The notes under the pieces: generated by a model | Databases searched by the model: none | Seen by the model: the letters and a program-made list of their open reading frames with translations, nothing else | Told to the model about the DNA's origin: nothing | Shown here: piece by piece, positions 3,393 to 57,938 of the stretch | Numbering within the stretch: the first letter of the stretch is position 1 | Layout of the letters: each line of letters opens with the position of its first letter | Made by a program: the position numbers and the translations under genes | Assembly (NCBI GenBank): GCA_001798075.1 | Contig: MGRG01000002.1 | Coordinates: 46,631 to 110,630 of the forward strand | DNA length: 64,000 bases | Reading direction: 5' to 3' | DNA from: Deltaproteobacteria bacterium RIFCSPHIGHO2_01_FULL_43_49 | Lineage (GTDB): Bacteria > UBA10199 > SPLOWO2-01-44-7

Positions 3393-4916
3393 AAAATAAA
3401 AATAAACAATAAGGAAGTTGAGGTAGCGGAGGGGACGACGGTTTTGAAGGCAGCGCTGGCCAACAAAGTTGATATCCCTTATTTTTGTTATCACCCCAAA
3501 CTCTCGATTTCCGGCAATTGCCGCATGTGTCTGGTCAACATCAAGGGCCAGAACAAACCGGTCATTTCTTGTCGCGAAAGAGTGCGGGAGGGGATGGAGG
3601 TTGATACCAAATCAGAAGAAGTCAAAAAAATGCAGCAGGGAGTTTTAGAGTTTATTTTGGTCAATCATCCTTTGGATTGTCCTATCTGTGATCAATCGGG
3701 TGAGTGCGATCTGCAGGATAATTATTTTAAATTTTCGAAATTTCCCTCCCGCCTGGAAGATCAAAAAATCCATAAACCCAAAGTCAAATCACTGGGTCCT
3801 CTGGTCACACTTGATGATGAGCGCTGCATTGTCTGCACGAGATGTGTGCGATTTTGCGATGAGGTAGCAGGCACTCATGAACTTTGTGTGACCGAGCGTG
3901 GAGGACACTCCGAACTGACGACTTACCCTGGAAAAGAGTTAAAAAATCCTTATTCACTTTGCACAGTCGATGTTTGCCCCGTGGGAGCACTCACTTCCAC
4001 CGATTTTCGTTTCAAAAAACGGGTCTGGTTTTTGAAAACGACCCCTTCAATTTGTACCGGCTGTGCCACCGGCTGTAACATCAAGATGGATTGGGATGAT
4101 TCGGTGGTTTATCGCTACCGTCCCAGAGAAAATGAGGCGGTCAACCAATGCTGGATGTGCGATGAAGGAAGGCTTTCCTATAAATTTATTAATGATGCGA
4201 ACAGGGTTTTTGAACCTTTGCTCAAAAAACATGGGGAGTTTGAAGAAATAACTTGGGAAGGGGCTCTCAAACATATCGCTGATATTTGCTATGAAAATCC
4301 CAAGGTTCATTATATCGGTGTTTTATCGGCTCAAGCCAGCTGCGAAGAAAATTTCACCCTCCATTCCTTTTTGAAAAATGTTTTTCCAAAAGCCCAATTT
4401 TTGACGACAAAAAAAGAAGTGCCACACCCATCCCACGATGAATTTTTAATCGATGCGGACAAAAACCCCAATTCAAATTTTTTAGAATTGCTTGAAATTA
4501 AAGAAGCAGATGATTTTGCAAAAGAAGGGATATATTTTGTTTTGGAACATTTAACGAATGCTCAGAAAGAGGCCTTGATTATGGCCAAGCCAAAGATGGT
4601 TGTTTGGCTGGCCTCAAACTTAGGGGACGTTTCCCTTGCAGGGGGAACGTCCCCTAAGTTGTCCCCTCCGTTGTGGGCCGATGTGATTTTGCCAAAACCG
4701 ACTTTTGCAGAACAAGAAGGACACTTTATTAACAGACAAAAAAGACTTCAGAAAGCAAACAAGGCCTTCGAACCAAAGGGTCATGCGAGGCCTGTTTGGA
4801 TGGCTCTAGCAGAGCTTTCCAGAAAATTGGATAAGCCATTGGATTGGAATTCTTACCCAAATGTTTTTAAAGAAATGAGTCAGGAACTAAAATGGATTAC
4901 GCAATTGCAGCGCTAA
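3387..4916 (+). CDS. nuoG: NADH-quinone oxidoreductase subunit G (short form, 2Fe-2S plus 4Fe-4S N-terminal module)
   Basis: MVKIKINNKEVEV start at ATG 3387; the ORF-track start 3327 overlaps nuoF. CRMCLV, HPLDCPICDQSGECDLQ, CIVCTRCVRFC and CPVGALTS motifs. Carries an in-frame palindrome at 4618-4659. Confidence 0.85.
   Translation: MVKIKINNKEVEVAEGTTVLKAALANKVDIPYFCYHPKLSISGNCRMCLVNIKGQNKPVISCRERVREGMEVDTKSEEVKKMQQGVLEFILVNHPLDCPICDQSGECDLQDNYFKFSKFPSRLEDQKIHKPKVKSLGPLVTLDDERCIVCTRCVRFCDEVAGTHELCVTERGGHSELTTYPGKELKNPYSLCTVDVCPVGALTSTDFRFKKRVWFLKTTPSICTGCATGCNIKMDWDDSVVYRYRPRENEAVNQCWMCDEGRLSYKFINDANRVFEPLLKKHGEFEEITWEGALKHIADICYENPKVHYIGVLSAQASCEENFTLHSFLKNVFPKAQFLTTKKEVPHPSHDEFLIDADKNPNSNFLELLEIKEADDFAKEGIYFVLEHLTNAQKEALIMAKPKMVVWLASNLGDVSLAGGTSPKLSPPLWADVILPKPTFAEQEGHFINRQKRLQKANKAFEPKGHARPVWMALAELSRKLDKPLDWNSYPNVFKEMSQELKWITQLQR
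4618..4659 (+). repeat. P-type palindromic element (GGGGACGTT...AACGTCCCC), in frame inside nuoG
   Basis: ACTTAGGGGACGTTTCCCTTGCAGGGGGAACGTCCCCTAAGT. Near-perfect inverted repeat, encodes NLGDVSLAGGTSPKLS. Confidence 0.85.
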
Positions 4917-7586: not shown

Positions 7587-8084
7587 ATGATGGAACCGAT
7601 TTTCTTTTATGGTTTTGGGGGGTTGGCGGTGGTCACAGCACTGTTGATGGTGACCAGGGTCAATCCAATTGCCTCGGCGGTTTGGCTGGTGGTCTGCTTT
7701 TTTGCCTTTGCCGCACTTTTTATAACGTTGGAAGCCCATTTTATTGGGGTCATTCAAGTGCTACTCTATGCTGGCGCCATCATGGTTTTGTTTATCTTTG
7801 TGATCATGCTTTTAAATATTGGAGCGGAAGAGCTCAAAGCAAGAACGATGCAGTTTTCAGGACTTTTGGGAGGATTAGTTACTATCTACCTCATTGTTTT
7901 GATCACACTGGGGCTTCTCAAAAATCCAGTCAGATTTTTTGAACCTTTGACGGAAGGGTACGGCTACGTTGCCCCCGTTGGACGATTATTGTTTACAAAA
8001 TATTTAGTGCCGTTTGAGCTGACATCCGTTTTACTTTTGGTTGCAATCGTAGGGTCAGTAGTGATGGGGAAGAGGAAGCTGTAA
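7587..8084 (+). CDS. nuoJ: NADH-quinone oxidoreductase subunit J
   Basis: 165 aa polytopic membrane protein in operon position before nuoK. VLLYAGAIMVLFIFVIMLL segment typical of ND6/NuoJ. Confidence 0.85.
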   Translation: MMEPIFFYGFGGLAVVTALLMVTRVNPIASAVWLVVCFFAFAALFITLEAHFIGVIQVLLYAGAIMVLFIFVIMLLNIGAEELKARTMQFSGLLGGLVTIYLIVLITLGLLKNPVRFFEPLTEGYGYVAPVGRLLFTKYLVPFELTSVLLLVAIVGSVVMGKRKL

Positions 8085-8098
8085 AAAATTAGAAATGA

Positions 8099-8167
8099 AA
8101 AATCAAAAACCAAAAATACAAACTAAGAATAAAAGTTTTTTGTTTTTAATATGTGTTTTTGGTTTTT
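8099..8167. repeat. Inverted pair of degenerate AAAAYCA-type heptamer arrays in the nuoJ-nuoK spacer
   Basis: AAAATCA AAAACCA AAAATAC AAACTAA at 8099-8126. The arm 8105-8120 pairs with 8152-8167 (TGTGTTTTTGGTTTTT) with one mismatch. Confidence 0.7.
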
Positions 8168-8191
8168 AACTTTTAATTTTTTATTTAGTTC

Positions 8192-13704: not shown

Positions 13705-14997
13705 ATGTTTAATGAATTTAATCCCTTTAACCCCAACTCAATTGTAACGCCCACATTATTTGCTGGGCGCCATGAACAAGTCTTGCAGATACTTAAAAAA
13801 CTAGCCCAAGTTCGTGAAGGGCTTCCCTCTAGCTTTGTACTTCAAGGAGAACGAGGTATTGGTAAAACGGCTTTGGCAAAACTTATTCTTCATGTTGCTG
13901 AGGCTAAAGATCCAAAATTGGAAAAACTCAATTTTTTGGCTAGTTATTATAGTGTCGAGAGAGGTCAAACTTTTGAATCGGTCTTGCAGGCATGTTTAAA
14001 CTCAATGACCGACCGTATGCCAGATACGGTTCTCAAACGGTTGACCAATCGGCTAGGGGGTTTTTTTAAGAATGGTAAGTTTACTATTGGGGCCTTTGGT
14101 GCCAGCGCTACCTATGAAGGTTTAGGCTCATCTACTCCAGAAGAAGCTTTGCTTGCTATGAAAGATCGTGCTGTCTCCATTTTTTCTAATATCATTAGTG
14201 GATTAGATGAGGTCCAAGATACAAAAAATAAGCGAGATGGAGTTTTATTAGTTATCGATGAAATCCATAATTTGAAAGACCTTTCAGGCACAGCACAGGT
14301 TCTACGTGCTATTGCTACAACATTAGATGTCAATCAGTTAGGCAAAATTTCTTTTATGATCATTGGCTATGCAGAAGGTATGAATCATTTTTTTGAGGGA
14401 GATCCATCTGCTCGGCGACATTTTGATTTGATAAATTTGGCCGTTATGCCTAGGCACGAAGCAAAGGAAGTGCTTATAAAGGGTTTTACAAGAACGGGTT
14501 TAACATATGATGAAAATGTTTTGGAAAAAAACATCGATGTTGCGGGTGGTTATCCTCATTCAATTCAGATTATTGGTCATAATCTTGTCGGCGTTGACGA
14601 AAATCAGCATATTGATCAAGACGATTGGGCAAAGGCTTTGCGGCGATCTGCTATTGAATTAACTCAAAAAGATTTTTCAGAATTTTATGATTTCAAGGGC
14701 AGGGGAACACTTCGTGAGACCGTATTAAACCTTTTAGCTCTGCGCGGACGGCCCATGACTAAACAGGAGATAAAAAAACTCAGCGATGGAAAAAACATTT
14801 ATACAGAAACCTGTTTAGGAGCTTTGAAAAAATCAGGAGCCATCAAAGAAACGCCAGACAGAACCATTGTGCTTCACTCAATGCTTTTCCGAGCAGCGAT
14901 TCTCATACACCTGTACACACATGCACAGGAAAACCAATCCTATAGTGATTTGATCAAAAAAATTAAGTCGCTCAACAACAAAACCGATTCAATTTAG
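13705..14997 (+). CDS. AAA+/STAND-like ATPase (ORC/Cdc6 or Arch_ATPase-type) with C-terminal winged-helix domain
   Basis: FAGRHEQV...GERGIGKTALAK (Walker A), LLVIDEIHN (Walker B), GGYPHSIQIIG (sensor-2-like). C-terminal LNLLALRGRPMTKQEIKKL looks like a wHTH. Confidence 0.75.
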   Translation: MFNEFNPFNPNSIVTPTLFAGRHEQVLQILKKLAQVREGLPSSFVLQGERGIGKTALAKLILHVAEAKDPKLEKLNFLASYYSVERGQTFESVLQACLNSMTDRMPDTVLKRLTNRLGGFFKNGKFTIGAFGASATYEGLGSSTPEEALLAMKDRAVSIFSNIISGLDEVQDTKNKRDGVLLVIDEIHNLKDLSGTAQVLRAIATTLDVNQLGKISFMIIGYAEGMNHFFEGDPSARRHFDLINLAVMPRHEAKEVLIKGFTRTGLTYDENVLEKNIDVAGGYPHSIQIIGHNLVGVDENQHIDQDDWAKALRRSAIELTQKDFSEFYDFKGRGTLRETVLNLLALRGRPMTKQEIKKLSDGKNIYTETCLGALKKSGAIKETPDRTIVLHSMLFRAAILIHLYTHAQENQSYSDLIKKIKSLNNKTDSI

Positions 14998-15161
14998 GAA
15001 TAGAAGTAAATCATCTCAAAAAGAATTTAAGGGAGATGGAGACTTAACCTAAGCGGTACCCCAAATATGAAATGGGTCATCAGCTTTCCCATGGATTTAA
15101 GCCGTGAAGTGTTCTAAGTGAGACTTCTTCTATGAAAAAGAAATTGCAAGGGGAGAGATAA

Positions 15162-16001
15162 ATGAGCTTTTACAGATATTTCAAATTTGAAGATAGTTTA
15201 AAAACTCTGTCCTCACTTTGCCTTCGCATGTCAGATCCACGTCATTTTAATGACCCTTTCGAGTTCAACCCAGTAATCGATTTAAGTGATATTACTTATG
15301 ACAAAGCCACTGTTTATTTTGGTTCTGAGAAGGGGCTTGAGGGTATTTACAGAGAGAAAGGCACTAAAGAACCATATACTCAATTTAAAGAAAATTTTTT
15401 AAAAACTGAACTGAAGGGTTTTGTTAATAAATGGCTGGATAATCGTCATGTGCATGAGGAAAAGATGAGTTTTCAAAGCGCCCTCTGCCCAAGGTTTAAT
15501 GTTGTTTGTGGCTCGTTCACACCATTATCAATTTTGATGTGGTCTCACTATGCTGAAAAACATTCAGGCGTGGTAATTGAGTTCAATCAAAATGAATCTC
15601 CCTTTTCACGAATACAGAGAATAGGAAGATTGATAAATGTGAATTATGAAGACAAAAGACCTCTTTATAAATTTGGATTTGATCATAGCGAGCTAGAACT
15701 CCTTGAAAAATTCAACCAAGTTGCAAGAACTAAATATACGTGTTGGGGCTATGAAAAAGAGGTTCGAGCCGTTTTGCCGGTGGGAGATGATATAGTGAAA
15801 ACACGTGTAATAAAAAAGTTAGATGATCATTATTACCTTTCAATTACTCCGCGATCAATTTCATCAGTTATCATGGGATCTCGAATAGAAAATACCAGCT
15901 ATGAAGCGCTGAGAGGAATTTTAAACCAGGAATTTTTTAAGCATATTCAGTTAAAAAAATGTTTTTTGTCGAAAAGTAAATTCGAATTGGAAATCGAATA
16001 A
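15162..16001 (+). CDS. DUF2971-family protein
   Basis: Family hallmarks as I recall them: FYRYFKF...LRMSDPRHFNDPFEF, ILMWSHYAEKHSGVVIEF, WGYEKEVRAV and SSVIMGSRI. SD GGGGAGAG upstream. Confidence 0.75.
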   Translation: MSFYRYFKFEDSLKTLSSLCLRMSDPRHFNDPFEFNPVIDLSDITYDKATVYFGSEKGLEGIYREKGTKEPYTQFKENFLKTELKGFVNKWLDNRHVHEEKMSFQSALCPRFNVVCGSFTPLSILMWSHYAEKHSGVVIEFNQNESPFSRIQRIGRLINVNYEDKRPLYKFGFDHSELELLEKFNQVARTKYTCWGYEKEVRAVLPVGDDIVKTRVIKKLDDHYYLSITPRSISSVIMGSRIENTSYEALRGILNQEFFKHIQLKKCFLSKSKFELEIE

Positions 16002-16041: not shown

Positions 16042-16226
16042 CCGCGAGGTGGATTCGCAAAACCGTTAGCAATTTGGGTGAGAAAGGCGTCTCGGAGGCG
16101 CTTGCGACAGCGGGGGCTATAATCATGCAAGCGCCGAGAGACGAGTGGGTGTTTTGGGGCGCTCCCCGAAACAACCCACGTCCTTTCGAATCCCAAATTG
16201 CGGAAGGTTTTGCGATATATGTCGCG
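16042..16226 (+). repeat. H3 Y-shaped structured repeat, copy 1 (variant)
   Basis: Basal stems CGCAAAACC/GGTTTTGCG and GCAATTTGGG/CCCAAATTGC. Apical hairpin GCGCTTGC...GCAAGCGC with a GGGGGCTATAAT loop. 3' side hairpin GAGTGGGTGTTTTGGGGCGCTCCCCGAAACAACCCACGTC, then CTTTCGAA. Confidence 0.8.
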
Positions 16227-17030: not shown

Positions 17031-17069
17031 AATCTTCTCCGACCTATACGATTGGGGTTGTTTCCTTAA

Positions 17070-17234
17070 GTGACGAAAGCTTCCGCTCGTTGGATTCTCA
17101 GGGACGTGGGTTGGTTTGGGGAGAGCCCCAAACCACCCACTCCGCTCTCCCCCGCCAAAATATGAATAGCCCCCACAAAGAGTTGGCGGGGTCCGAGAGG
17201 CCCTTCGAATCCAACTCGCTCGCGCTTTCGTCAC
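17070..17234 (-). repeat. H3 Y-shaped structured repeat, copy 2 (reverse orientation), nested in an outer hairpin 17048-17258
   Basis: The reverse complement reads GTGACGAAAGC...GAGTGGGTGGTTTGGGGCTCTCCCCAAACCAACCCACGTC...GCTTTCGTCAC, with the same module order as copies 1, 3 and 4. Confidence 0.8.
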
Positions 17235-17263
17235 GCCAGTCGAAAACAAACCCAATGCACAAG

Positions 17264-17308
17264 CACTCCAAACTACAGCTATAGTTCGAAGCGCCCCTGC
17301 GAAAAATG
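17264..17308 (-). repeat. Linker hairpin L (reverse orientation)
   Basis: Reverse complement CATTTTTCGCAGGGGCGCTTCGAACTATAGCTGTAGTTTGGAGTG matches 22109-22151 and 28374-28419. Confidence 0.75.
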
Positions 17309-17329
17309 CACAATTTAGTTGGGAGAAAT

Positions 17330-17480
17330 GAAAAGGCGCGAACGAGCTAGGTGAGAAGGTGTCCACAGTCCCGCCACACTGATTGGGGGCCTAATACCTG
17401 GCGGAACGAGGATAAAGTGAGATTTTGGGGGCCTTCCCAAAATCGAGCGGCCTTCGAACCTGGCGAGTGGAAGCCTTTTC
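17330..17480 (+). repeat. H3 Y-shaped structured repeat, copy 3
   Basis: GAAAAGGC-GCG-AACGAG...CCGCCA(loop with TTGGGGGCCTAATA)TGGCGG...GAGATTTTGGGGGCCTTCCCAAAATC...CCTTCGAACCTGG-CGAGTG-GAAGCCTTTTC. Confidence 0.8.
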
Positions 17481-17529
17481 ATTTTGAATCAATCAACAAA
17501 AGCATTTTTCGAAAGGGTCGGGGAAGGGT

Positions 17530-19428: not shown

Positions 19429-19491
19429 GGATACTGTTCAAATAAATTGCTTTAAGCTCCCTTCATTTTATATTAAGCTTGTTTCCTCCAG

Positions 19492-19750
19492 CTACCTGGC
19501 GCTGAGGGTGCTGAAAGTACGTGATATTTTTTGGGTTGAGGCATCAGACTCCACAAACCCTTCGGGTTTGCTTCGCGGCCCAGCAAAGCTGGGCCTTGAC
19601 ACAAAATTCGCTCGACTCTCGGCAATTTTAGCATTCTATCCCTTTTGTTAAAATTGCCCGGCAAAGGCTGGCTTTGCCAGCCTGCGCAGCAACTTCGCAG
19701 AAGTTGCGGAGTATAATAGAGACGACTTTCATCACCCTCATCGCCACGCC
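19492..19750 (+). repeat. H4: element bounded by terminal inverted repeats, made of five mini-hairpins
   Basis: GGCGCTGAGGGTGCTGAAAG (19498-19517) pairs with CTTTCATCACCCTCATCGCC (19726-19745). Internal hairpins are CAAACCC-TTCG-GGTTTG, GGCCCAGC-AAA-GCTGGGCC, GGCAATTTTA...TAAAATTGCC, AGGCTGGC-TTT-GCCAGCCT and GCAACTTC-GCA-GAAGTTGC. Confidence 0.75.
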
Positions 19751-19852
19751 GTCGGAAACAAGCTTCATTCAAAAAATAAGGTAGGTCACTTACGCAATTT
19801 ATTTTGCAAGTATCTCTTTCAAGGGTGTGGGGTAGTAAAGACAAAAGGTAAA

Positions 19853-20013
19853 AGTTGCCACGCGAACGAGGTGGGTGAGAAAAACCTCTCGGAACCCAGC
19901 CAAACCTTATGGGGGTTACAATAATTTGGCGGGGTGAGAGTGGAGTGGGCATTTTGGGGCTCTCCCCAAAATGACCCACGTCTTTTCGAACCCACCAAGT
20001 GGAAGTGGCAACT
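19853..20013 (+). repeat. H3 Y-shaped structured repeat, copy 4
   Basis: AGTTGCCAC-GCG-AACGAG-GTGGGT...CCCAGCCAAA(loop TATGGGGGTTACAATAA)TTTGGCGGGG...GAGTGGGCATTTTGGGGCTCTCCCCAAAATGACCCACGTC-TTTTCGAA-CCCAC-CAAGTG-GAAGTGGCAACT. Confidence 0.8.
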
Positions 20014-20035
20014 TTTAAGTTTGAAACTCCTTTTT

Positions 20036-20878
20036 TCATCCGTTCGCGAGTGTAAACAACAAGCTCTCTATGAGCAACTGCTTATTGGCATAGGTTTGTA
20101 GACCGCGAGTCGCATTTTGGATGGCTGTCCATTGGGTGGTCAGTCTTTCGGTTGCTTTTGCATCTCCGTTTTCCAAGATTTTTTTGTGCCACAGTTGCTC
20201 CAATAGTATCAAAACATAAGGGAGTTTTTCGGACTCTTCACTCAATGTTTCACTCAAATCCAAAATTTTACTAGGAGTTAGACCTTGAGAGAGTTCTGTT
20301 AGTTTTTGGTTGATTTCACCGGCAAGATTCACATCAAAATCAAGAGCCATTTTGAGACTTCCCATGGCAAAGTTAGTCTTTTGTTCCGCCTCTACTTGAG
20401 ACAAACCATTTCGCACCAGATATTGTTTGATTTGTTCATGACTCAAAGGACCAAAAGTCATTTGTCTACATCGTGAACGGATAGTTGGCAGAAGTCTTGT
20501 CGGTTGATGAGAAATCAAAATAAAGTAAGTGGCCTGTGGTGGCTCCTCCAAAATTTTTAGGAGGGCATTGGCACCGGCTTCTGTCATCATGTGAGCATTG
20601 TCGATAATAACTACTTTCACCTCTCCTTCCAGGGGATGAAGGTAAATTTTTTGTTTAAGCCGGCGTAGTAACTCTACCTTGATGGTCAATCCTTCCGGTT
20701 CAATAAAGTGTAAATCAGATTTGGAACAACGCAAAGCTTGTACGAGTCCCAGCGCGATTTGTTTTTTTCCGATCCCTTCAATTCCAGAAAAAAGATAGGC
20801 GTGAGCCAGCTTCTTTTCTTTAAGCTCTTTTTTTAGTTGTTCAATCTGATTTTTATGACCAAAAATATTTTGCCACAT
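20036..20878 (-). CDS. holB: DNA polymerase III subunit delta prime
   Basis: LAHAYLFSGIEGIGKK, NALLKILEEPP and LPTIRSRCRQMTF motifs. Confidence 0.85.
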   Translation of the reverse strand: MWQNIFGHKNQIEQLKKELKEKKLAHAYLFSGIEGIGKKQIALGLVQALRCSKSDLHFIEPEGLTIKVELLRRLKQKIYLHPLEGEVKVVIIDNAHMMTEAGANALLKILEEPPQATYFILISHQPTRLLPTIRSRCRQMTFGPLSHEQIKQYLVRNGLSQVEAEQKTNFAMGSLKMALDFDVNLAGEINQKLTELSQGLTPSKILDLSETLSEESEKLPYVLILLEQLWHKKILENGDAKATERLTTQWTAIQNATRGLQTYANKQLLIESLLFTLANG

Positions 20879-21537: not shown

Positions 21538-21618
21538 GGTGGTGGGTCCTGTCCCTCCGTGTTTTTGTGGGGGCCCCTAACTAAACCCCACAACAAACAC
21601 TCCGGGCCACCCACCACC
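21538..21618 (+). repeat. H1 hairpin repeat, copy 1 (core plus GGTGGTGGG/CCCACCACC layer)
   Basis: Core CCTGTCCCTCCGTGTTTTTGTGGGGGCCCCTAACTAAACCCCACAACAAACACTCCGGGCC. Confidence 0.85.
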
Positions 21619-21727: not shown

Positions 21728-21955
21728 ATGGCTATTAAACCTCTGTCATTATCTTTTGAATCTATCGTTAGGGGTGTGCAAGGTGTGCAACCTGAGCAGG
21801 CCCTTCTGACCGATTTTGCCCAAGTCAGAAAGGTTGATAGCCCAGAAGAAGAGCAGACTGTTGTTTCTACTTCACCAGAACAGATGCTTCCTGAAGACAC
21901 TTTCGTTGACGCAACACTCGATCCACTCAAAAATTACCGCTCACTGATTTCTTAA
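21728..21955 (+). CDS. Hypothetical small acidic protein
   Basis: ATG 21728 with AAGGA 3 nt upstream is preferred over the TTG at 21677. 75 aa, no recognisable motif. Confidence 0.35.
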   Translation: MAIKPLSLSFESIVRGVQGVQPEQALLTDFAQVRKVDSPEEEQTVVSTSPEQMLPEDTFVDATLDPLKNYRSLIS

Positions 21956-22004
21956 AAAAAATCTTCTCCGGCCTTTGCGAAAAACGTTTTCATAATACAG
22001 AGTG

Positions 22005-22090
22005 GAGCTTCGGGGTCCTGTCCCTCCGTGTTTTCGTGGGGGCCCCTAACTAAACCCCACGACAAACACTCCGGGCCACCCCTTCGCTTC
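22005..22090 (+). repeat. H1 hairpin repeat, copy 2 (core plus GAGCTTCGGGGT/ACCCCTTCGCTTC layer)
   Basis: Same core carrying a compensated T-A to C-G change (TTTTCGTGGGG / CCCCACGACAAA). Confidence 0.85.
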
Positions 22091-22108
22091 GATCACACTA
22101 CACTGAAA

Positions 22109-22151
22109 CGTTTTTCGCAGGGGTGCTCCGAACTATAGCCATAGTTCGTAG
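22109..22151 (+). repeat. Linker hairpin L
   Basis: CGTTTTTCGCAGGGGTGCTCCGAACTATAGCCATAGTTCGTAG. Its 5' part pairs with CCTTTGCGAAAAACG at 21972-21986, enclosing H1 copy 2. Confidence 0.75.
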
Positions 22152-22173
22152 TTTTTGTGTGCCAGGTGGGTGA

Positions 22174-22362
22174 GGACAGGAGTGGGGTGGACAAAACATT
22201 TGTGCGGGAACGAGGGCGTATCGAGTCAATAAAAATAATATTCGTTTCTGCAGATAGAGCTGACGGCAGGTAAGATACTATCTGCATCTTTATGAAACGA
22301 AATTATTTTTTTGACGAGATAGCCCGAAGTGGAGCACCGTTTTGAACACCCCACTCCTGCCC
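22174..22362 (+). repeat. H2 long-hairpin repeat (about 190 nt), copy 1
   Basis: GGACAGGAGTGGGG...TGCAGATAG-AGCTGACGGCAGGTAAGATA-CTATCTGCA...CCCCACTCCTGCCC. Confidence 0.85.
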
Positions 22363-22380
22363 GAAAGCCATCCACAATTT

Positions 22381-23901
22381 TTATAAATCCATCAGAAAAT
22401 ATAGAATGGTACGGACGGGGTTGCCGGTGGCACCGACCATGGTGTGATAGCTATTCGGTTCATCGGCCCAGGCAGTAGAGGCGATGTCCATATGGACCCA
22501 TTTATTTTTCTTTGCAAATCCTTCTAGAAAGAGGGCGCCACAAATTGTGGAGGCTTTGGATCCACTCCCAGAATTTTTCAAATCGGCCGGCCCTTTCAAA
22601 TAACCTTTTTTGTAATTTTGATAGAGCGGAAGTTCCCATGCCGGTTCTCCCGTTTTTTTGCCAGCATTGATCAAACGTCCAATCAAACCTTTGTCATTGC
22701 CCAAAATCGGAGTGATAAGCTCTCCAACCGCATAAGCAGCGCCACCGGTAAGGGTTGCCATGTCGATCATATAGGTTGGTTTTGATTCGCAGGCATAGTC
22801 AAGCGCATCTGCCAAAACGAGACGTCCTTCCGCGTCGGTGTTGATAACCTCCACCGTTGTCCCTGCTCTTGTTGTGATGATGTCGCCAGGACGGACCGCA
22901 TTGCCCGATGGCATATTTTCACAAGAGGCAATAAATCCTTCAACATGCACTTTTGGTTTCGATGTTGCCAGTGCTTTGAAAACACCCAACACCGTTCCGG
23001 CTCCCGCCATGTCTAACTTCATCAACTCAATTTCTCGCGTTTTGATATTGAGACCACCGCTATCAAAAGTGATTCCTTTTCCAATCAATGCCACTTTGGC
23101 GCGGGACTTCTGTCCAGGTTTGTAAGTTAGATGGATAAACTGCGGCGGTTCGGAAGAACCCTTTGTCACCGCAAGAAGACCTCCCATTTTCTGAGCCTTA
23201 ATTTCTTTGAGTCCAAGGACTCTGCAAGAAATATTTCTATGCTCTTTTGCCAACGCCAATGCTGCTTTGGCCAAAGCGGTTGGTGTAAGGTCATTGGGAG
23301 GAGAGTTGGTTAGATCTCTCGTGAAGTTGGCGGCCTGTGCAAAAGTTTCTGCAGTGGTGCAAGCCTTTGCGAGAAGTGCTGTATTTCCTTTTGTTTGAAA
23401 GTGAATGGCCTTGAATGTCTTTGGGGTCCTTTTTTGTTTGTCTTTGTAGTAATCAAATGAATAATTAGCCAACACACAACCCTCCACAAAGGCTTGCAGA
23501 CGTTCAGCAGTGGTCAATCCTTTTATTTTTGTTTGTTCGACAACACAACCGACACTTTGAGCTTTGATGCCATTAGAAATTTGTGCGACTTTGCCGCCAA
23601 TTCGCCGAATGGTTTCCAAAGAAAATTTTTTCTGAAGGCCTGCTCCAATAATTAAAATATTCTTCGCTTTAATTTTTTCCAGGGAATGAATGAGAAGGCT
23701 CTCTCCTTCTTTCCCATTAAACTCTTGTGCCTTGATTGCTTGCGTGATTTGCCCTTCCAGAAGTTTATCTAGGCCTTGACCGCCATCATTTTGTTGAAGT
23801 GTTGCTGCAACCGGCTTTTCCGAATCTTTCTGAAAAGTGACAACGAAGACCAAATCGGCGATGGTTTTGTCTAAGGACTCTCTTGTGAAATGGAAATTCA
23901 T
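22381..23901 (-). CDS. pepA: Leucyl aminopeptidase (M17)
   Basis: NTDAEGRLVLADAL signature and VALIGKGITFDSGGLNIK motif. Confidence 0.93.
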   Translation of the reverse strand: MNFHFTRESLDKTIADLVFVVTFQKDSEKPVAATLQQNDGGQGLDKLLEGQITQAIKAQEFNGKEGESLLIHSLEKIKAKNILIIGAGLQKKFSLETIRRIGGKVAQISNGIKAQSVGCVVEQTKIKGLTTAERLQAFVEGCVLANYSFDYYKDKQKRTPKTFKAIHFQTKGNTALLAKACTTAETFAQAANFTRDLTNSPPNDLTPTALAKAALALAKEHRNISCRVLGLKEIKAQKMGGLLAVTKGSSEPPQFIHLTYKPGQKSRAKVALIGKGITFDSGGLNIKTREIELMKLDMAGAGTVLGVFKALATSKPKVHVEGFIASCENMPSGNAVRPGDIITTRAGTTVEVINTDAEGRLVLADALDYACESKPTYMIDMATLTGGAAYAVGELITPILGNDKGLIGRLINAGKKTGEPAWELPLYQNYKKGYLKGPADLKNSGSGSKASTICGALFLEGFAKKNKWVHMDIASTAWADEPNSYHTMVGATGNPVRTILYFLMDL

Positions 23902-27251: not shown

Positions 27252-28133
27252 ATGAACTTTCTTCGTTCCATAGACCCTGTTTGGATCAGCCTAGGGCCTA
27301 TCCTAGTCATAAACCTCATTTTGCTTACTTCGCTTCTTTATTTTTTGGCCACACGGGATCGCTGGCCTGTTCCCTCGGAAGTAAAAACCCGTCCCAATTC
27401 TAAGTTTTTGAGCGGTGTTTTAAAACACTGGTGGTATTGGAACAATGAACCGATTGGTAAATTTTTTATGCGTCTCGGTTGGACACCCAATACCCTTACT
27501 TTTCTCGGTTTTCTTTTCAGCATTGTCGCTGCCTTCTTCTACGGCAATGGGTTGTTTGGTTACGCCGGGTGGTTGATGCTATTTGGTTCCACCTTTGATT
27601 TGTTTGATGGCCAAGTGGCCCGCCTCACCGGAAAGGTTTCCAGGTCGGGGGCTTTTTTTGACTCGGTGATGGATCGTTTCAGCGAGGGGATTATTTTTTT
27701 GGGTCTCAGTTTTTATTTTCGTGATTCCTGGATTCTCTTTTTTCTTCTTTTAGGGCTTATCGGTTCAATGGCGGTTTCGTACACAAGGGCGAGGGGAGAA
27801 GCGGTGGGCGTTGATGTTAAAAAGGGGTCCATGCAACGCCCAGAACGGATCGTCTATCTTGGCTGCGCCTCTATTTTCGAGCCGATGACGACTTACGGCC
27901 TCAATTTTATTTGGCCTGTGCCACCTCCAGTTTTGGTCATTGCTGCGATTGTCTTGATTGGTGTGATGACGAATGTCACCGCTGTTTATCGGATGATTTA
28001 TGTCATGAATGAATTGGATAATCGTGAAAAAGCTGGAATTGAAACTCTACCAAAAATGTTGTCAAGATTGACTACCCCTGAAGGCCGTGAAAAACTGCGT
28101 TCCGAATGGAAACAGAAAAAGCTGGGCTCCTAA
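27252..28133 (+). CDS. CDP-alcohol phosphatidyltransferase family protein
   Basis: DLFDGQVARLTGKVSRSGAFFDSVMDRFSEG matches D-x2-DG-x2-AR-x8-G-x3-D-x3-D. Polytopic membrane protein. Confidence 0.85.
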   Translation: MNFLRSIDPVWISLGPILVINLILLTSLLYFLATRDRWPVPSEVKTRPNSKFLSGVLKHWWYWNNEPIGKFFMRLGWTPNTLTFLGFLFSIVAAFFYGNGLFGYAGWLMLFGSTFDLFDGQVARLTGKVSRSGAFFDSVMDRFSEGIIFLGLSFYFRDSWILFFLLLGLIGSMAVSYTRARGEAVGVDVKKGSMQRPERIVYLGCASIFEPMTTYGLNFIWPVPPPVLVIAAIVLIGVMTNVTAVYRMIYVMNELDNREKAGIETLPKMLSRLTTPEGREKLRSEWKQKKLGS

Positions 28134-28176
28134 CATCTTCTCCGACCTTTGCGAAAAACGCTTTCATAAATAGATG

Positions 28177-28356
28177 GAGCTTCGGGGTCTGAATCAATGA
28201 GTTGAAAATGACAGATTCTGTGTGGAGTGGCGGATCCTGCCCCTCCGTGTTACTGTGGGGGCCCCTAACTAAACCCCACAGCAACACTGCGGGCCACCCA
28301 CCACTCCACCATTTGTGCGTCATTTTCAACCTTTGAAAGCAGTTACCCCTTCGCTC
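28177..28356 (+). repeat. H1 hairpin repeat, copy 3 (expanded, four nested layers)
   Basis: GAGCTTCGGGGT / AGTTGAAAATGAC / GGAGTGGCGG / core / CCACCCACCACTCC / GTCATTTTCAAC / ACCCCTTCGCTC. Confidence 0.85.
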
Positions 28357-28373
28357 CAATCATTATGCTGATG

Positions 28374-28419
28374 CGTTTTTCGCAAGGGTGCTCCAAACTA
28401 TAGCAGTAGTTCGGAGTGC
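28374..28419 (+). repeat. Linker hairpin L
   Basis: CGTTTTTCGCAAGGGTGCTCCAAACTATAGCAGTAGTTCGGAGTGC. Its 5' part pairs with CCTTTGCGAAAAACG at 28146-28160. Confidence 0.75.
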
Positions 28420-28438
28420 TTGTGTGCCAATTGCGCTA

Positions 28439-28629
28439 GGGCAGGAGGTGGGGGTGTGAAAAACATTGTGCGGGAACGAGGGCGTATTGAGTCAAATAAA
28501 ATAATATTCGTTTCTGCAGATAGAGCTGACGGCAGGTAAGATACTATCTGCATCTTTTGAAACGAAATTATTTTTTTGACGAAATAGCCCGAAGTGAAGC
28601 ACCGTTTTGAACACCCCCACCTCCTGCCC
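28439..28629 (+). repeat. H2 long-hairpin repeat, copy 2
   Basis: The basal stem is changed on both arms (CAGGAGGTGGGGG / CCCCCACCTCCTG). The apical loop is identical to copies 1 and 3. Confidence 0.85.
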
Positions 28630-28661
28630 GGAAGCAATTGGTAGATAGGTCGGAGAAGGGT

Positions 28662-31340
28662 TTAGAATGGGTACCCGAAGGTCAAGTGAAACCTGCCGAA
28701 GTTTTCGCCGGATTTGCGATCCAAAATCACACCGTAGTCAGCCCTGATTGGTCCCACTGGGGTTACATAGCGCAAACCGACACCAACCGAATGTCTTATC
28801 GTATTCCAATCAATTTCAGGAAATGTATCTGTAAGGCTGCCTGCATCGTAAAAAGTAGCAAGTTGCAAATCTTTAACCAAACGAAGATGAAATTCTGCGT
28901 TATAAATCCATCGCAAACGTCCCCCCGCGGCTTGGCCAGTAGCATCCAGAGGGCCTAAAACATCTTCTTTGAAACCGCGCAGGGTATCATCACCCCCCAG
29001 AGTAAAAAGTTGGCGCTGCGGAATACTGATATTCGAACCAATGGATTGGATTCGATCAAAACGGAGTGTATTGGAGAATGTCAAACGGCCGAACGGCGAA
29101 TAGTAATGACTAAACACCCATTTTAATTTGGCAAAGTTTGCCCCTAGTCCTTTGATTTCGTTAACGACATTGGCACCTACGAGGCCAAAAAAACCTCGGG
29201 TTGGATCCGAAAAACTGTTGCGTCGATCGTAACTTCCTGAAAGTGTTATTTGTGAAAGTGTGCTGTCACGCAACGATCCTGGGTCTCTTGCCCTTCCTTC
29301 GAAGATATAGTTTCGGGCCAGTTCGTACCGAGTCAGAAATCCAAAGCGATGAAATTGTCTAAAGAAAGCAACAGCCCCACCAGTTTGCAGGGAGGTTTCT
29401 ACCGGTTCTTCTTCATAATCTATCCAAGAAGCAATTGTCATTTGCACATCGGAGCCCACAAAACGGGGATCAAACCAAGAAAGTTCTAATCGATCTTTTT
29501 CTTTTCCGGCTTGGAATAGCAACCCAGTTTGCTTTGCCCATCCGAAGGAATTGAAGTTGGTAAATTTCAGCACCCCCCCGAATGCTTTATCGGTGCTATA
29601 TTGGCCTTCCAAGTCGACGACAAAAGGGGACTTTTCCTCAACCTTCACCTTGAGATGTATAACCTTTTCTTTTTCTTCCAGACCAATTGTTTCAACATTA
29701 ACGACATTAAAAGCACCTAAACGTCTCAGGTTAAGTTGTGCTTCCAGAATCTTTTGCTGGTTGTAGAGATCTCCAGAGCGAATTCCAATCGCCTGGCGAA
29801 TGGCTTTTACACCGGTTAAGACATCTCCCAAAATAAAAATTTCTCCGATTTGGACCGTTGGCCCTTCATCAATCTGATATATAATGCCTATTTTGTTTTC
29901 ACTTCGTTTGATCTCCTGAGAAATTTCAGCGTAAGGGTGTCCATGGTCGGCGTATAAAAACTGGAGTCGTTCTTTATCTTGTTTGAGCACCAATTCATTA
30001 AATGGAAGACCCTCTTTGTTTTCTAAAGGTTTTATTAGTTGTTCTTTTTGGAGAGATTTGTTTCCATCAAACATGACAGAGTTGATGGTGACGAGTGGCC
30101 CTTCATCAACATTGAAAGCGATATCCAACTTTATTTTGCTGTCATCGATGGTGACTTGTGGAAGGCCGACTGTAGCATCTGAAAAACCTTTGCTTTGATA
30201 ATATTCCGTGGCTATTTTTGAATCTTCATCCAAAAAATCTTCATAGAGGAGGCCTTTTTTTGTCAAAGAACGTTCCTTTGTTAACATCTGTTTTTTAATC
30301 TCTTTTTCAGAAATCGCTTGGCTCCCTTCAAAATGAATGGATTTAACAAATTGTTGGGGCCTTAAACGAATGTTAAAATAAATTTGGAAGTGTTCCGGAT
30401 CAATTTTTTCTTTTTTAAAAACTACTTCGGCCTCTTTATAACCATCCTCCCAGAACTTTTTTAATAAAGCGTCACGACTCTCCTCCAAAGTGGCCATGTC
30501 GAAGTTGCCATCTCTAAAAAGTGTCACAATTTTTTTGAAGGTGGCGAGCCGATAACGTTTTGTCCCTCTAAAAAAGACTTCTACTTTGGGACCCTCTTGA
30601 ATGCCTAGTTTCAACGCGACACGCCTTTTTCCCAGGTCACTATTTTTTTCAAGCACTCTGACATGGGCCTTTAAATAACCCCTGGCCCTATAGAATTCTG
30701 TTAGTTTTTGAATAGCGTTTTTAAGCTCTCTTTCGGAATAATAATTATGAGGTTTGATAAAAGTATAGATGCGTCCTTTGGGAAAGGCTTTCACCCCTTC
30801 TAGATCTAATTTTCCAATTCGTATTCGCTCTCCCTTGATAATATGATAGGTCAAATAAACGCTGTTGTTAGCGGCAGCCGGTTCCTCTTTTATATCGATC
30901 CTGGTATTATAATAACCCCTTCTTTCATAAAATGATCGGATCCTTTCTTTTTGTTCTTCGGCTCGTTCTGGTATCAACATGTCTCCAACTTGCAAATTGA
31001 GCCGTTTTCTTATTTTGGTTTCTACGTAAGGATAATTTCCATCAACGTCAATTTCTCCAATGACAAGGGCCTCATGTAACTTGAATCGGATGATTGTCCC
31101 TTTGGCCGCATACTCTGTCTTAGCCGAAATTTCGTCAAAAATACCCCATTTTTTTAAAAGTTGGATTCCTTGTTCTAATTTTTCCGGCTGATAGGGATCG
31201 CCTAATTTGAAGGGAAGAACACTTAAAATGCGCTCTTTTGCTGTTAAAAGTTCCCCTTCAATAACTATGTCTGAAATTTTCGAAGCGGAAATAACCTGTG
31301 TAGCGATCAAAAGAATTATGAATCCTGGAATTTTTTTCAT
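28662..31340 (-). CDS. bamA: Outer membrane protein assembly factor BamA (Omp85)
   Basis: 892 aa with a signal peptide, repeated POTRA-like modules and a C-terminal barrel ending FHLTFGYPF. Confidence 0.92.
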   Translation of the reverse strand: MKKIPGFIILLIATQVISASKISDIVIEGELLTAKERILSVLPFKLGDPYQPEKLEQGIQLLKKWGIFDEISAKTEYAAKGTIIRFKLHEALVIGEIDVDGNYPYVETKIRKRLNLQVGDMLIPERAEEQKERIRSFYERRGYYNTRIDIKEEPAAANNSVYLTYHIIKGERIRIGKLDLEGVKAFPKGRIYTFIKPHNYYSERELKNAIQKLTEFYRARGYLKAHVRVLEKNSDLGKRRVALKLGIQEGPKVEVFFRGTKRYRLATFKKIVTLFRDGNFDMATLEESRDALLKKFWEDGYKEAEVVFKKEKIDPEHFQIYFNIRLRPQQFVKSIHFEGSQAISEKEIKKQMLTKERSLTKKGLLYEDFLDEDSKIATEYYQSKGFSDATVGLPQVTIDDSKIKLDIAFNVDEGPLVTINSVMFDGNKSLQKEQLIKPLENKEGLPFNELVLKQDKERLQFLYADHGHPYAEISQEIKRSENKIGIIYQIDEGPTVQIGEIFILGDVLTGVKAIRQAIGIRSGDLYNQQKILEAQLNLRRLGAFNVVNVETIGLEEKEKVIHLKVKVEEKSPFVVDLEGQYSTDKAFGGVLKFTNFNSFGWAKQTGLLFQAGKEKDRLELSWFDPRFVGSDVQMTIASWIDYEEEPVETSLQTGGAVAFFRQFHRFGFLTRYELARNYIFEGRARDPGSLRDSTLSQITLSGSYDRRNSFSDPTRGFFGLVGANVVNEIKGLGANFAKLKWVFSHYYSPFGRLTFSNTLRFDRIQSIGSNISIPQRQLFTLGGDDTLRGFKEDVLGPLDATGQAAGGRLRWIYNAEFHLRLVKDLQLATFYDAGSLTDTFPEIDWNTIRHSVGVGLRYVTPVGPIRADYGVILDRKSGENFGRFHLTFGYPF

Positions 31341-37438: not shown

Positions 37439-37531
37439 CAACAAATCGACGGACCCTGTCCCTCCGTGTTTTCGTGGGGGCCCCTAACTAAACCCCACGA
37501 CAAACACTACGGGCCACCCATCGATTTGTTG
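37439..37531 (+). repeat. H1 hairpin repeat, copy 4 (core inside CAACAAATCGA/TCGATTTGTTG arms)
   Basis: Lies in the 127-nt divergent spacer between the EamA gene and the acs-like gene and ends 8 nt before the acs-like ATG. Confidence 0.85.
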
Positions 37532-42337: not shown

Positions 42338-42440
42338 CTTTGTTTGGAGCGAAGGGGTGGCCCGGAGTGTTTGTTGTGGGGTTTAGTTAGGGGCCCCCAC
42401 AAAAACACGGAGGGACAGGACCCCGAAGCTCCAAACAAAG
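42338..42440 (-). repeat. H1 hairpin repeat, copy 5 (reverse orientation; core plus GAGC..GGGGT layer plus CTTTGTTTG/CAAACAAAG arms)
   Basis: Starts 14 nt upstream of the ldcA ATG and generates the spurious N-terminal ORF extension GSCPSVFLWGPLTKPHNKHSGPP. Confidence 0.85.
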
Positions 42441-50203: not shown

Positions 50204-50268
50204 TGCGGTATCAAAGTATTAAAACGGGTCAAGGCTTAATGTAGAAATCGTTTTTAATCGGTGAGTTG

Positions 50269-50451
50269 GAGCTTCGGGGTTTCAATTGATCAGTTGAAAA
50301 TGACGGGCTTTATTTGGAGTGGCGGGTCCTGTCCCTCTGTGTTTTTGTGGGGGCCCCTAACTAAACCCCACAACAAACACTCCGGGCCACCCACCACTCC
50401 ACCAATCATCCGTCATTTTCAACTCTTGAGGATAGGCCACCCCTTCGCCCC
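50269..50451 (+). repeat. H1 hairpin repeat, copy 6 (expanded, four nested layers)
   Basis: Same layer order as copy 3 (28177-28356). Confidence 0.85.
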
Positions 50452-50522
50452 AACCATCTCGCACGATTCCTATGCACTTAATTAACTAAAAGGTAGGCGC
50501 TGCCTTATGGTAAAATATGTAA

Positions 50523-50712
50523 GGGCAGGAGTGGGGATGGGCAAAACATCGTGCGGGAACGAGGGCGTATTGAGTCAATAAAAATCATATTCGTTTCTGC
50601 AGATAGAGCTGACGGCAGGTAAGATACTATCTGCATCTTTTGAAACGAAATGATTTTTTTGACGAGATAGCCCGAAGTGGAGCACAGTTTTGAACACGCC
50701 CCACTCCTGCCC
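50523..50712 (+). repeat. H2 long-hairpin repeat, copy 3
   Basis: Carries the compensated change AATCAT / ATGATT where copies 1 and 2 have AATAAT / ATTATT. The apical loop is identical. Confidence 0.85.
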
Positions 50713-50752
50713 AAAAACGATTCGAGACTGAATTTACTTTAAATTTGGATTA

Positions 50753-51359: not shown

Positions 51360-51896
51360 TTAACTAACTACACGAAGTTTGGCAGGCATTAGCTCTTTCA
51401 AGCAGGTCGTTTCACAAACCGGGCAATCTTTGAGACCCGGGCAGGTTTCACTGAGCTGCCAAAATTTTTCCAAAACCTTTTTGACTTGAGGATCAGCAGA
51501 AGACATAAAACGAATGAAGGCTAAGAGATTTGCCCCCGTTTCTGAACTGATCAAATGTTCAATTTTGCAAGTATCGACTTCCGCCTGATACGGTTTTACT
51601 TTCAAGATGTCCTGGAAAAAGCGTTTGAGAACGACCTTCTTGCCAATGATTTCTTCTGCGACTCGTTTTCCATCGGGTGTCATCTGAAGAAATTTATTGG
51701 TATCCTCTTTAAGGTAATTTTTTTCAATCAACGCATGTAGTCCCATTGAAGCGGAGGACCTGGCAATTCCCAATTTTTTAGCGACATCGGCAGCACGCGC
51801 ATAACCCTGTTCACCAATCAAATCATGGACAGCAACCAGGTAGTGCGCCGCACTGTGTGTTAGTTGATTGGCTTCAAACTCTTTCCATACTTCCAT
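51360..51896 (-). CDS. DtxR/MntR-family metal-dependent transcriptional regulator with Cys-rich C-terminus
   Basis: N-terminal wHTH (SAAHYLVAVHDL...ARAADVAKKLGIARSSAS) and a dimerisation domain. C-terminal CPGLKDCPVCETTC. Confidence 0.8.
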   Translation of the reverse strand: MEVWKEFEANQLTHSAAHYLVAVHDLIGEQGYARAADVAKKLGIARSSASMGLHALIEKNYLKEDTNKFLQMTPDGKRVAEEIIGKKVVLKRFFQDILKVKPYQAEVDTCKIEHLISSETGANLLAFIRFMSSADPQVKKVLEKFWQLSETCPGLKDCPVCETTCLKELMPAKLRVVS

Positions 51897-51935: not shown

Positions 51936-51974
51936 ATAAATACCGCCAGGTACCAGGTACCTGGCGGTATTTAT
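51936..51974. repeat. Perfect 39-nt palindrome (19-nt arms, 1-nt centre) in the dtxR-like/mraZ divergent region
   Basis: ATAAATACCGCCAGGTACC A GGTACCTGGCGGTATTTAT. Confidence 0.9.
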
Positions 51975-52169: not shown

Positions 52170-52185
52170 GTGGGGAAAGGTGGGG
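52170..52185 (+). promoter_or_regulatory. Candidate MraZ operator: two GTGGGG direct repeats with 10-bp spacing
   Basis: AAGTGGGGAAAGGTGGGGA lies 24 nt upstream of the mraZ ATG. As I recall, E. coli MraZ binds 10-bp-spaced GTGGG-type direct repeats in its own promoter. Confidence 0.35.
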
Positions 52186-57720: not shown

Positions 57721-57749
57721 CGAATCGCTAGCGAGTTTATAAAGGGTGT

Positions 57750-57916
57750 GGTGAAAAAGTCGCTTCCGGGATGCGTTTTGAGAAAAGACGCGGTTCCCGC
57801 CGGGTCGTCCCGGCGGGACCGCTCGGCTCTCGCCCATTTTATCTTTATTTCCCGTTTGTGAAAATGGGCTGCGAGACGCTTTTCTCAAAACGCATCCCTC
57901 GCGCGACTTTTTCACC
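57750..57916 (+). repeat. Branched (Y-shaped) palindromic element between murE and murF
   Basis: GGTGAAAAAGTCGC/GCGACTTTTTCACC and GGGATGCGTTTTGAGAAAAG/CTTTTCTCAAAACGCATCCC enclose two hairpins: GGTTCCCGCCGGG-TCGT-CCCGGCGGGACC and CTCGCCCATTTT...AAAATGGGCTGCGAG. Confidence 0.8.
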
Positions 57917-57938
57917 AGTTCCATAAGCGATGGGGGTT

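Follow-up and report, generated by a model that had tools for sequence, protein, structure and literature searches.

Bacterial miniature inverted-repeat transposable elements (MITEs) form long stem-loops at the RNA level, have inverted termini, and reach sizes of up to ~400 bp (PMC3184786). REPINs are doublets of repetitive extragenic palindromic (REP) sequences mobilised by RAYT, and compensatory changes across their hairpins are common (PMC3116915). Here we describe H2, an extended hairpin present in three copies in a 64,000-nt stretch of the genome of Deltaproteobacteria bacterium RIFCSPHIGHO2_01_FULL_43_49 (contig MGRG01000002.1, positions 46,631 to 110,630; hereafter the window). H2 is a real, non-random feature of this DNA. 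In its most complete setting it is the right-hand arm of a composite element, in which two long hairpins (H1 and H2) are enclosed by inverted termini. H2 is probably a module of a new, lineage-specific family of dispersed non-coding hairpin repeats that resemble MITEs, REPINs, and enterobacterial repetitive intergenic consensus (ERIC) elements. The family is new and unusual in its size and modular design; the kind of element is already known.

Described MITEs, such as Correia of Neisseria (with TA-flanked termini), bcr1 of Bacillus, and Chunjie of Geobacter, share several properties with the composites: they are non-coding, multi-copy, and intergenic, and they have inverted termini and long, very stable stem-loops, often at gene ends (PMC3184786). 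Drawings of bcr1 show a pair of independent stem-loops, comparable to the two arms of the composite (PMC3184786). The composites differ from MITEs in length (410-530 nt compared to the usual 100-200), in an interior made of interchangeable long hairpins of 90-270 nt, and in having no similarity to any plasmid or phage record searched. Like REPINs and BIMEs (PMC3116915), H2 is a hairpin-forming extragenic repeat with compensatory changes, and its family forms mosaic clusters of modules in alternating orientation that persist within a lineage. However, a REPIN is ~70-110 nt with conserved ends and a variable center, whereas H2 is ~215 nt with a conserved center (96% identity) and variable ends (69%). 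Because this pattern is reversed, H2 should not be filed as a REPIN; in addition, neither a GTAG/CGTC-type tag nor, in the window and the fetched flanks, a RAYT gene was seen. ERIC (IRU) elements of Enterobacteria are, like H2, imperfect intergenic palindromes with maintained stems and with size variants created by internal insertions, and both probably exert their effects as RNA, within co-transcripts. ERIC elements are ~127 bp, form a single family, and have no sequence relation to H2, whereas H2 is one of several families sharing frames and modules.

The first-pass annotation located three copies of H2 on the same strand, and their coordinates were confirmed (Table 1). All three are intergenic, and each folds as one long hairpin with an energy of -90 to -102 kcal/mol; the z-scores are -11 to -12.4, and no shuffle of 200 reached this stability. 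The 38-nt apical cap (TGCAGATAG-AGCTGACGGCAGGTAAGATA-CTATCTGCA) occurs exactly three times in the window without a mismatch, compared to none expected from shuffled sequence. Mean column identity among the three copies is 87% (alignment with 25-nt flanks). The three compensated stem differences that had been reported are all present in the alignment: CAGGAGTGGGG/CCCCACTCCTG or CAGGAGGTGGGGG/CCCCCACCTCCTG in the basal helix, AATAAT/ATTATT or AATCAT/ATGATT, and TATC/GATA or TATT/AATA, for which copy 3 has the intermediate T-G state. The extended hairpin had been given a length of ~190 nt, but it continues outward by one more helix (shown for copy 2 in Table 1), which brings it to ~215 nt. On the + strand its internal loops form a purine-rich series (GCGA/GGAA, GGGA/GGA, GA/GAA, and GA/GA), and these sequences do not appear to fit the K-turn or sarcin-ricin consensus. 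An asymmetric internal loop had been described as conserved and similar to part of a second hairpin type, H3. The likeness is real, since H2 and H3, which is Y-shaped and not related to it in other respects, have the GAACGAG...AGTGGA module in common (the window has six true occurrences, ~1 expected), but copy 2 has one substitution in this loop (GAAGTGAAG). The reverse complement of H2 is nearly as stable as the + strand (-89 vs. -90 kcal/mol with RNA parameters, -64.5 vs. -67.4 with DNA parameters). Because both strands fold nearly equally well, H2 is on energy alone as much a DNA palindrome as an RNA hairpin.

Table 1. H2 copies and composite elements in the window (bits are scores to covariance model R1).
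Feature	Position	Strand	Details
H2 copy 1, whole hairpin with outer helix	22159-22377	+	229.6 bits; core 22174-22362
H2 copy 2, whole hairpin with outer helix CCAATTGC/GCAATTGG	28424-28644	+	254.2 bits; core 28439-28629
H2 copy 3	50508-50727	+	232.1 bits; core 50523-50712; outer helix unpaired
H2 apical cap, copy 1	22249-22286	+	9-bp stem and 20-nt loop; identical caps at 28515-28552 and 50598-50635
Purine-rich internal-loop module, 5' half CGGGAACGAGGG	22205-22216	+	opposite CCCGAAGTGGAG at 22323-22334; module also in H3 hairpins
Composite 1	21956-22380	+	left terminus CTTCTCCGGCC (21963-21973), P2 stem, H1 (22004-22090), small hairpin (22129-22148), H2
Composite 2, complete	28134-28661	+	left terminus 28137-28147, P2 stem and long H1 (28176-28357), small hairpin (28391-28416), H2, right terminus 28648-28658
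H1 upstream of H2 copy 3	50268-50451	+	different spacer hairpin (AAGGTAGGCGCTGCCTT); no recognisable termini
Sister composite	17031-17529	+	termini 17034-17044 and 17516-17526; H3 arms 17070-17234 (-) and 17326-17484 (+)

A metagenome search for the loop sequence had been proposed with the first description of H2. When JGI metagenome contigs were scanned for exact matches to the 20-nt loop, 11 stretches representing 10 new loci were recovered, and one further locus (L107, on 23 contigs) was reached by a search with the translated H2 minus strand. H2 therefore occurs at a minimum of 14 loci (three in the window, ten by exact loop, and one by the spurious-ORF search). Nucleotide similarity between the new loci and the window is confined to repeats of the H1, H2, and H3 types, so H2 is a dispersed repeat found at at least 14 sites. 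Some copies are decayed; most of the 3' arm is missing at L014, a truncated copy, and one apical arm has a 19-nt deletion at L008. The 20-nt loop is invariant within the window, as originally stated, but only near-invariant across the family, because a variant without one C (AGCTGACGG-AGGTAAGATA) is present at L107 (2975-3188; 23 contigs) and in L110 (2972-3190). L110 is the L007 locus in another assembly, and the loop of L007 is intact. This deletion at two loci could reflect gene conversion between copies or read mixing during assembly. A covariance model (R1) built from 12 H2 copies detected no extra diverged copies in the window and fetched loci (~220 kb), with a weak match to an H3-type hairpin only. 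The loop 22-mer had no match in GTDB representative genomes, and the loop and module 20-mers were absent from IMG/VR. Identity with the end of a known mobile element had also been raised for H2. Nothing similar to H2 or composite 2 was found in plasmid, phage, and viral-contig collections, including a blastn comparison of composite 2 with 72,556 plasmids and 50,697 phages.

On the H2 minus strand, 11 of 12 copies have one 73-codon frame that stays open from end to end of the element (e.g., 28424-28644), so gene callers yield spurious proteins from it. A protein-coding H2 was rejected: the only matches to the translated frame were seven open reading frames (ORFs) called on other H2 copies, and there is no coding constraint on the element because the common loop deletion shifts the frame. 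Metagenome contigs often end inside H2 (L003, L005, and L009). One contig (L104) has the flanks of two loci, L011 and L010a, joined inside H2; it was considered as a natural recombinant, but it has 1.5x coverage and is most likely an assembly chimera. Because the copies come from metagenome assemblies of a repeat, part of the apparent homogeneity of H2 could be an assembly effect. A young core nested in an older hairpin family was unsupported, as no base-only hairpins were present in any fetched sequence.

At all three window loci H1 lies shortly upstream of H2, as first noticed, and the measured distance from the end of H1 to H2 is 70-83 nt. The proposal of a bipartite H1-H2 unit of 360-450 nt was nearly right, but the complete unit is a composite of 410-530 nt with inverted termini. 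Its order is left terminus, P2 stem enclosing arm X, small hairpin, arm Y, and right terminus, where X can be H1, H3, or another hairpin and Y can be H2 or H3. The linkage of H1 and H2 is real (H1 precedes H2 at 9 of 14 loci) but not fixed, since other hairpins take the left-hand position at the remaining five. Because the same termini enclose two H3 hairpins in the sister composite, which also shares its small spacer hairpin and P2-type stem with the H1-H2 unit, we regard the unit as a frame with interchangeable arms. The terminus has the sequence AAYYCTTCTCCGRCC. Inverted termini are 11-15 nt long, with the extended form TA-AAYY-CTTCTCCGRCC ... GGYCGGAGAAG-RRTT-TA; terminal inverted repeats of the form CTTCTCCGRCC ... 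GGYCGGAGAAG bracket composite 2, the sister composite, and L008, and several copies retain one terminus only (composite 1 has no right terminus). CTTCTCCGRYC and its complement occur nine times in the window, compared to 2.5 expected. Composite 2 and L008 fold with their termini paired, which closes a three-arm junction (z -15.9 and -8.6, respectively). The two arms of a composite prefer opposite strands, and the two H3 arms of the sister composite are also inverted relative to each other. No protein-family match overlaps the composites, and no parent insertion sequence with the same termini was seen in ~300 kb of fetched sequence from this lineage.

The other hairpin families have their own settings. 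H3 is a hairpin of ~170-190 nt with a variable outer stem, a GCGA-AC-GA / GA-GU-GGAA module, and then two terminal hairpins, one of which carries a conserved GGGGGCUAU-type loop. Its members are at 16055-16215 (+), 17070-17234 (-), 17326-17484 (+), 19844-20022 (+), and 57749-57917 (-), and in each of them the module-bearing strand folds more stably. H1 also occurs as stand-alone 69-nt cores (21544-21612, 37451-37519, and 42355-42423 on the minus strand), each in a different locus-specific outer stem. At other loci the H1 outer stem is GTGAAAAAG.../...CTTTTTCAC, a frame that also serves some H3 copies. Positions 19430-19814 contain a 385-nt multi-hairpin element, with a 95.7% match at L007:14151-14242. 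An ORF of 188 aa (19473-20039, -) was called in the region (19430-20035) taken up by this element and an H3 hairpin; it has no Pfam match and is probably spurious, a stack of hairpins.

Genes around the window elements are ordinary chromosomal genes (metG, holB, tmk, pepA, bamA, tamB, and acs), and the composites are placed exactly at their ends. Composite 1 takes up all of the space from the stop codon of a + gene (21953-21955) to that of pepA (22381-22383, -). On each side of composite 2, 3 nt separate the terminus from a stop codon (28131-28133, +, and 28662-28664, bamA, -); this spacing recurs in the sister composite, which fills the gap between the stop codons of a 252-aa ORF and metG. 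Preserved termini at L016b, L007, L010a, and L010b are likewise 3 nt from stop codons. The H2 3' end faces the 3' end of an opposite-strand gene within ~40 nt at 10 of 13 loci, and H2 is upstream of a co-oriented gene at the other three.

Orthologous sites in relatives show these gene pairs without the insertions. The convergent pair of a small ORF and pepA is conserved, and its stop codons are 1 nt apart (TAA-T-TCA) in L099 (PepA 70% identical), overlap by 4 nt in another 70% relative, and are 19 nt apart in L100 (PepA 63%). In L018 (PepA 65%) the same gap is 62 nt, and the gap between bamA and a CDP-alcohol transferase gene is 81 nt. In the window, these two gaps measure 425 and 528 nt and are wholly filled by composites. 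H2 sites are thus empty in four relatives. The native BamA C-terminus (FGYPF*) is kept in the window and in a relative, and therefore composite 2 begins right after the original bamA stop codon. The PepA beside copy 1 is encoded identically on Rifle aquifer groundwater metagenome contigs, including a metagenome-assembled genome (GCA_001798335.1, MGRW01000013.1), and the nearest other PepA sequences are at most 70% identical; a PepA-profile scan of GTDB representatives gave, among the matches listed, only relatives of 41% identity or less. L018 has neither H1 nor H2, and at 14654-14924 it contains a tandem array of a different REP-like palindrome of ~51 nt (CGCTCATGGTGAGCTTGTCGAACCACCCTTCGACAAGCTCAGGGTGAGCGG).

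H2 is grouped with MITE/REPIN/ERIC-type repeats because it occurs at many unrelated sites, includes decayed copies, and shows recombination of arms within a common frame. The exact gene-boundary insertion, the empty orthologous sites, and the lack of transcription signals or an Rfam relative (see below) lead to the same grouping. Strict membership among MITEs is partly established, by inverted termini, multi-copy dispersal, and non-coding sequence. On this basis the composite would have spread as DNA, mobilised in trans by an enzyme encoded outside the examined sequence. The TA-flanked inverted termini suggest an IS630/Tc1-type transposase, and a hairpin-recognising enzyme of the RAYT/HUH type may be an alternative. 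When the empty site is rebuilt, composite 2 leaves CTAG, which is a preferred target of IS630; rebuilding the site of the sister composite would remove a stop codon. Spread or retention may depend on self-folding of each arm, either as RNA or as single-stranded DNA; such a need would account for the compensation in the basal helices. Near-invariance of the apical ~150 nt may reflect recent amplification, gene conversion from a master copy, or a binding site of the mobilising protein. Transcripts of both flanking genes would end in a very stable hairpin, probably with the side effect of a barrier or stabiliser at their 3' ends.

Several observations weigh against a mobile repeat of this kind. 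The mobilising enzyme is hypothetical, as neither the window nor the annotated neighborhoods yielded a gene for a transposase, RAYT, or reverse transcriptase. The termini are immediately flanked by TA at 5 of 6 left and 5-6 of 6 right ends, but this TA coincides with TAA/TTA stop codons, and L008 does not fit the pattern of a target-site duplication cleanly. Within the population, presence/absence polymorphism was not seen, and copies 1 and 2 are unchanged in six assemblies of the window locus. Mean pairwise identity is 96% in the apical ~150 nt and 69% in the basal helices, which is unlike the neutral decay of a dead repeat. The number of base pairs changed on both sides is 10, compared to 3.8 +/- 1.4 in shuffles, and none of 500 shuffles reaches it. 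The + strand of H2, which carries the purine-rich loops, is more stable than the minus strand in 13 of 13 copies, and alignment cells with G-U outnumber those with A-C by 29 to 8 (by columns just 13 vs. 7). Uneven divergence, double changes, strand stability, and G-U excess together indicate selection on a single-stranded fold, and they also fit a functional RNA.

The double changes come from the covariation test that had been suggested once more copies were collected. In the model-guided alignment 97.4% of cells are paired, and sliding the pairing partners abolishes the signal. Nine of the 10 double-changed pairs are in the two basal helices. The apical 54 pairs are nearly invariant and therefore uninformative on covariation either way; the sole covarying apical pair (the AATAAT/ATTATT vs. 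AATCAT/ATGATT position) is compensated in one copy and half-changed in two. The strand preference of H1 is opposite to that of H2, with the minus strand more stable in 14 of 16 copies. Of 10 loci with positive skew, 8 have H2 on the G-rich strand, but the skew comes from only ~10 kb per locus and is too weak to infer a replication-strand bias of H2 orientation. Replication-linked mutation bias could contribute to the G-U excess of H2, but it cannot explain the opposite bias of H1 inside those same composites.

The same data also argue for a multi-copy structured non-coding RNA transcribed from the + strand, whose conserved apical domain and loop would serve for protein binding or for pairing with a target and whose variable basal helices would need only to pair. 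We consider this unlikely. Covariation concentrated in the basal helices, the more stable + strand with its G-U excess, the recurrent purine-rich internal loops with a module shared by the unrelated H3, and the nearly identical apical domain all favor such an RNA, and the sole loop variant drops a base of the predicted terminal pentaloop while leaving the fold intact. However, compensated stems alone are no pointer to an RNA gene, because compensatory changes in hairpins are common in REPINs (PMC3116915), and the G-U excess is small when counted by column and could be a replication-strand mutation bias. The discrete ~190-nt structured RNA implied by the first-pass annotation is disfavored on further grounds. 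The comparison with Rfam 15 that it called for gave no match at gathering score over the whole window (4227 models). At E up to 5 around the elements, chance-level matches unrelated to H2 were returned, bar a 20-bit miRNA-precursor match on the reverse strand. No conserved sigma-70-like promoter or U-tract terminator was found in or around H2, and no tRNA or tmRNA genes are in the window. H2 has no fixed gene orientation, and its + strand is antisense to the abutting gene at 10 of 13 loci. Truncated and internally deleted copies persist among the 14 dispersed ones, and H2 is absent from the orthologous sites of relatives. The large or long-hairpin RNAs in Rfam (6S, OLE, ROOL, and GOLLD) are comparable to H2 in size, irregular extended or multi-arm fold, and purine-rich loops; H2 differs from them in its 14 or more copies with modular rearrangement and decay and in its lack of a fixed gene association. 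A 6S-like RNA was rejected: the central bubble of 6S is lacking, H2 is multi-copy, and Rfam gave no match.

Uneven divergence, dense basal compensation, shared purine loops, and dyad polarity of the arms are a better fit to selection on a folded strand than to a decaying repeat. The motif-bearing strand points outward from the center of the composite in both arms. The two transferred strands of a transposon have this same geometry, unlike known REP/RAYT or IS200/IS605 systems. Two less conventional proposals, which we hold to be distinctly unlikely, build on this polarity. H1, H2, and H3 might be arms of a previously undescribed modular mobile class, propagated via a protein that reads the GAACGAG/AGTGGA, GNGA/GGAA, and tandem GA loops on a folded single strand; or the outward strands might be transcribed divergently from the center of the composite, giving two conserved structured RNAs, each antisense to the 3' end of one of the flanking genes.

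The position of H2 between convergent genes raises the possibility that the host has co-opted the element, whatever its origin, as a two-way 3'-end structure that acts as a transcription barrier or mRNA stabiliser. Effects of this type have been reported for REP, ERIC, and Correia elements (reviewed in PMC3184786). Here H2 faces the 3' end of an opposite-strand gene at most loci, complete composites are located exactly between convergent stops that overlap or nearly abut in relatives, and both strands form hairpins of -89 to -102 kcal/mol. Even so, such a function as the explanation of H2 is quite improbable. No T-run follows the H2 base on either strand, and H2 is therefore no canonical intrinsic terminator; terminator-like calls inside H2 consist of the apical cap followed by ATCTTTT only, and this is buried in the larger hairpin. 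In addition, the three copies upstream of co-oriented genes do not fit a 3'-end role, H3 copies are present inside co-directional gene runs, and relatives manage without the element.

A single large structured RNA of ~0.4-0.5 kb, made of H1, the spacer hairpin, and H2, with P1 closing a multi-way junction as in OLE, ROOL, or GOLLD, is highly improbable. It would account for the closed three-arm junction of composite 2 and L008 and for the frequent order of H1 before H2. But the arms are interchangeable, many copies have lost one terminus, and the termini abut stop codons on both sides, for which an RNA gene gives no reason. Because H2 favors the + strand (13 of 13) and H1 the opposite strand (14 of 16), no single transcript carries both arms in the better-folding form. 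An integron attC site or cassette boundary was rejected: the flanks are housekeeping genes in conserved synteny, there is no integrase, and the termini have no GTTRRRY core.

If H2 and its relatives are a family of dispersed repeats, an uncultivated groundwater lineage spends several percent of its intergenic space on at least four interrelated families of long-hairpin repeats. For annotation, the family accounts for contigs that end in H2, one low-coverage chimera, seven spurious "proteins", and a 188-aa ORF that is probably made of hairpins. It also provides a clean case of elements inserted between overlapping or near-abutting convergent stop codons, and thus a test bed for a two-way 3'-end role. 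The conserved apical domain, shared purine-loop module, and dyad polarity make the family a reasonable candidate for a new hairpin-recognising mobilisation enzyme.

Other inverted repeats are present in the window. A perfect palindrome with 19-nt arms (ATAAATACCGCCAGGTACC / GGTACCTGGCGGTATTTAT) at 51936-51974 is a candidate operator, located in the interval that separates a DtxR-type repressor gene (51360-51896, -) from a divergent gene at 52170. A palindrome with 22-nt arms (AACTTAGGGGACGTTTCCCTTG / CAGGGGGAACGTCCCCTAAGTT) is at 4617-4660, and an AT-rich inverted repeat of ~100 nt is at 8082-8186. Directly upstream of an H3 hairpin, the region 13705-16001 contains a gene for a 430-aa nSTAND/AAA_16-type ATPase and, after it, a DUF2971 gene (279 aa); the two may be a defense-type gene pair.

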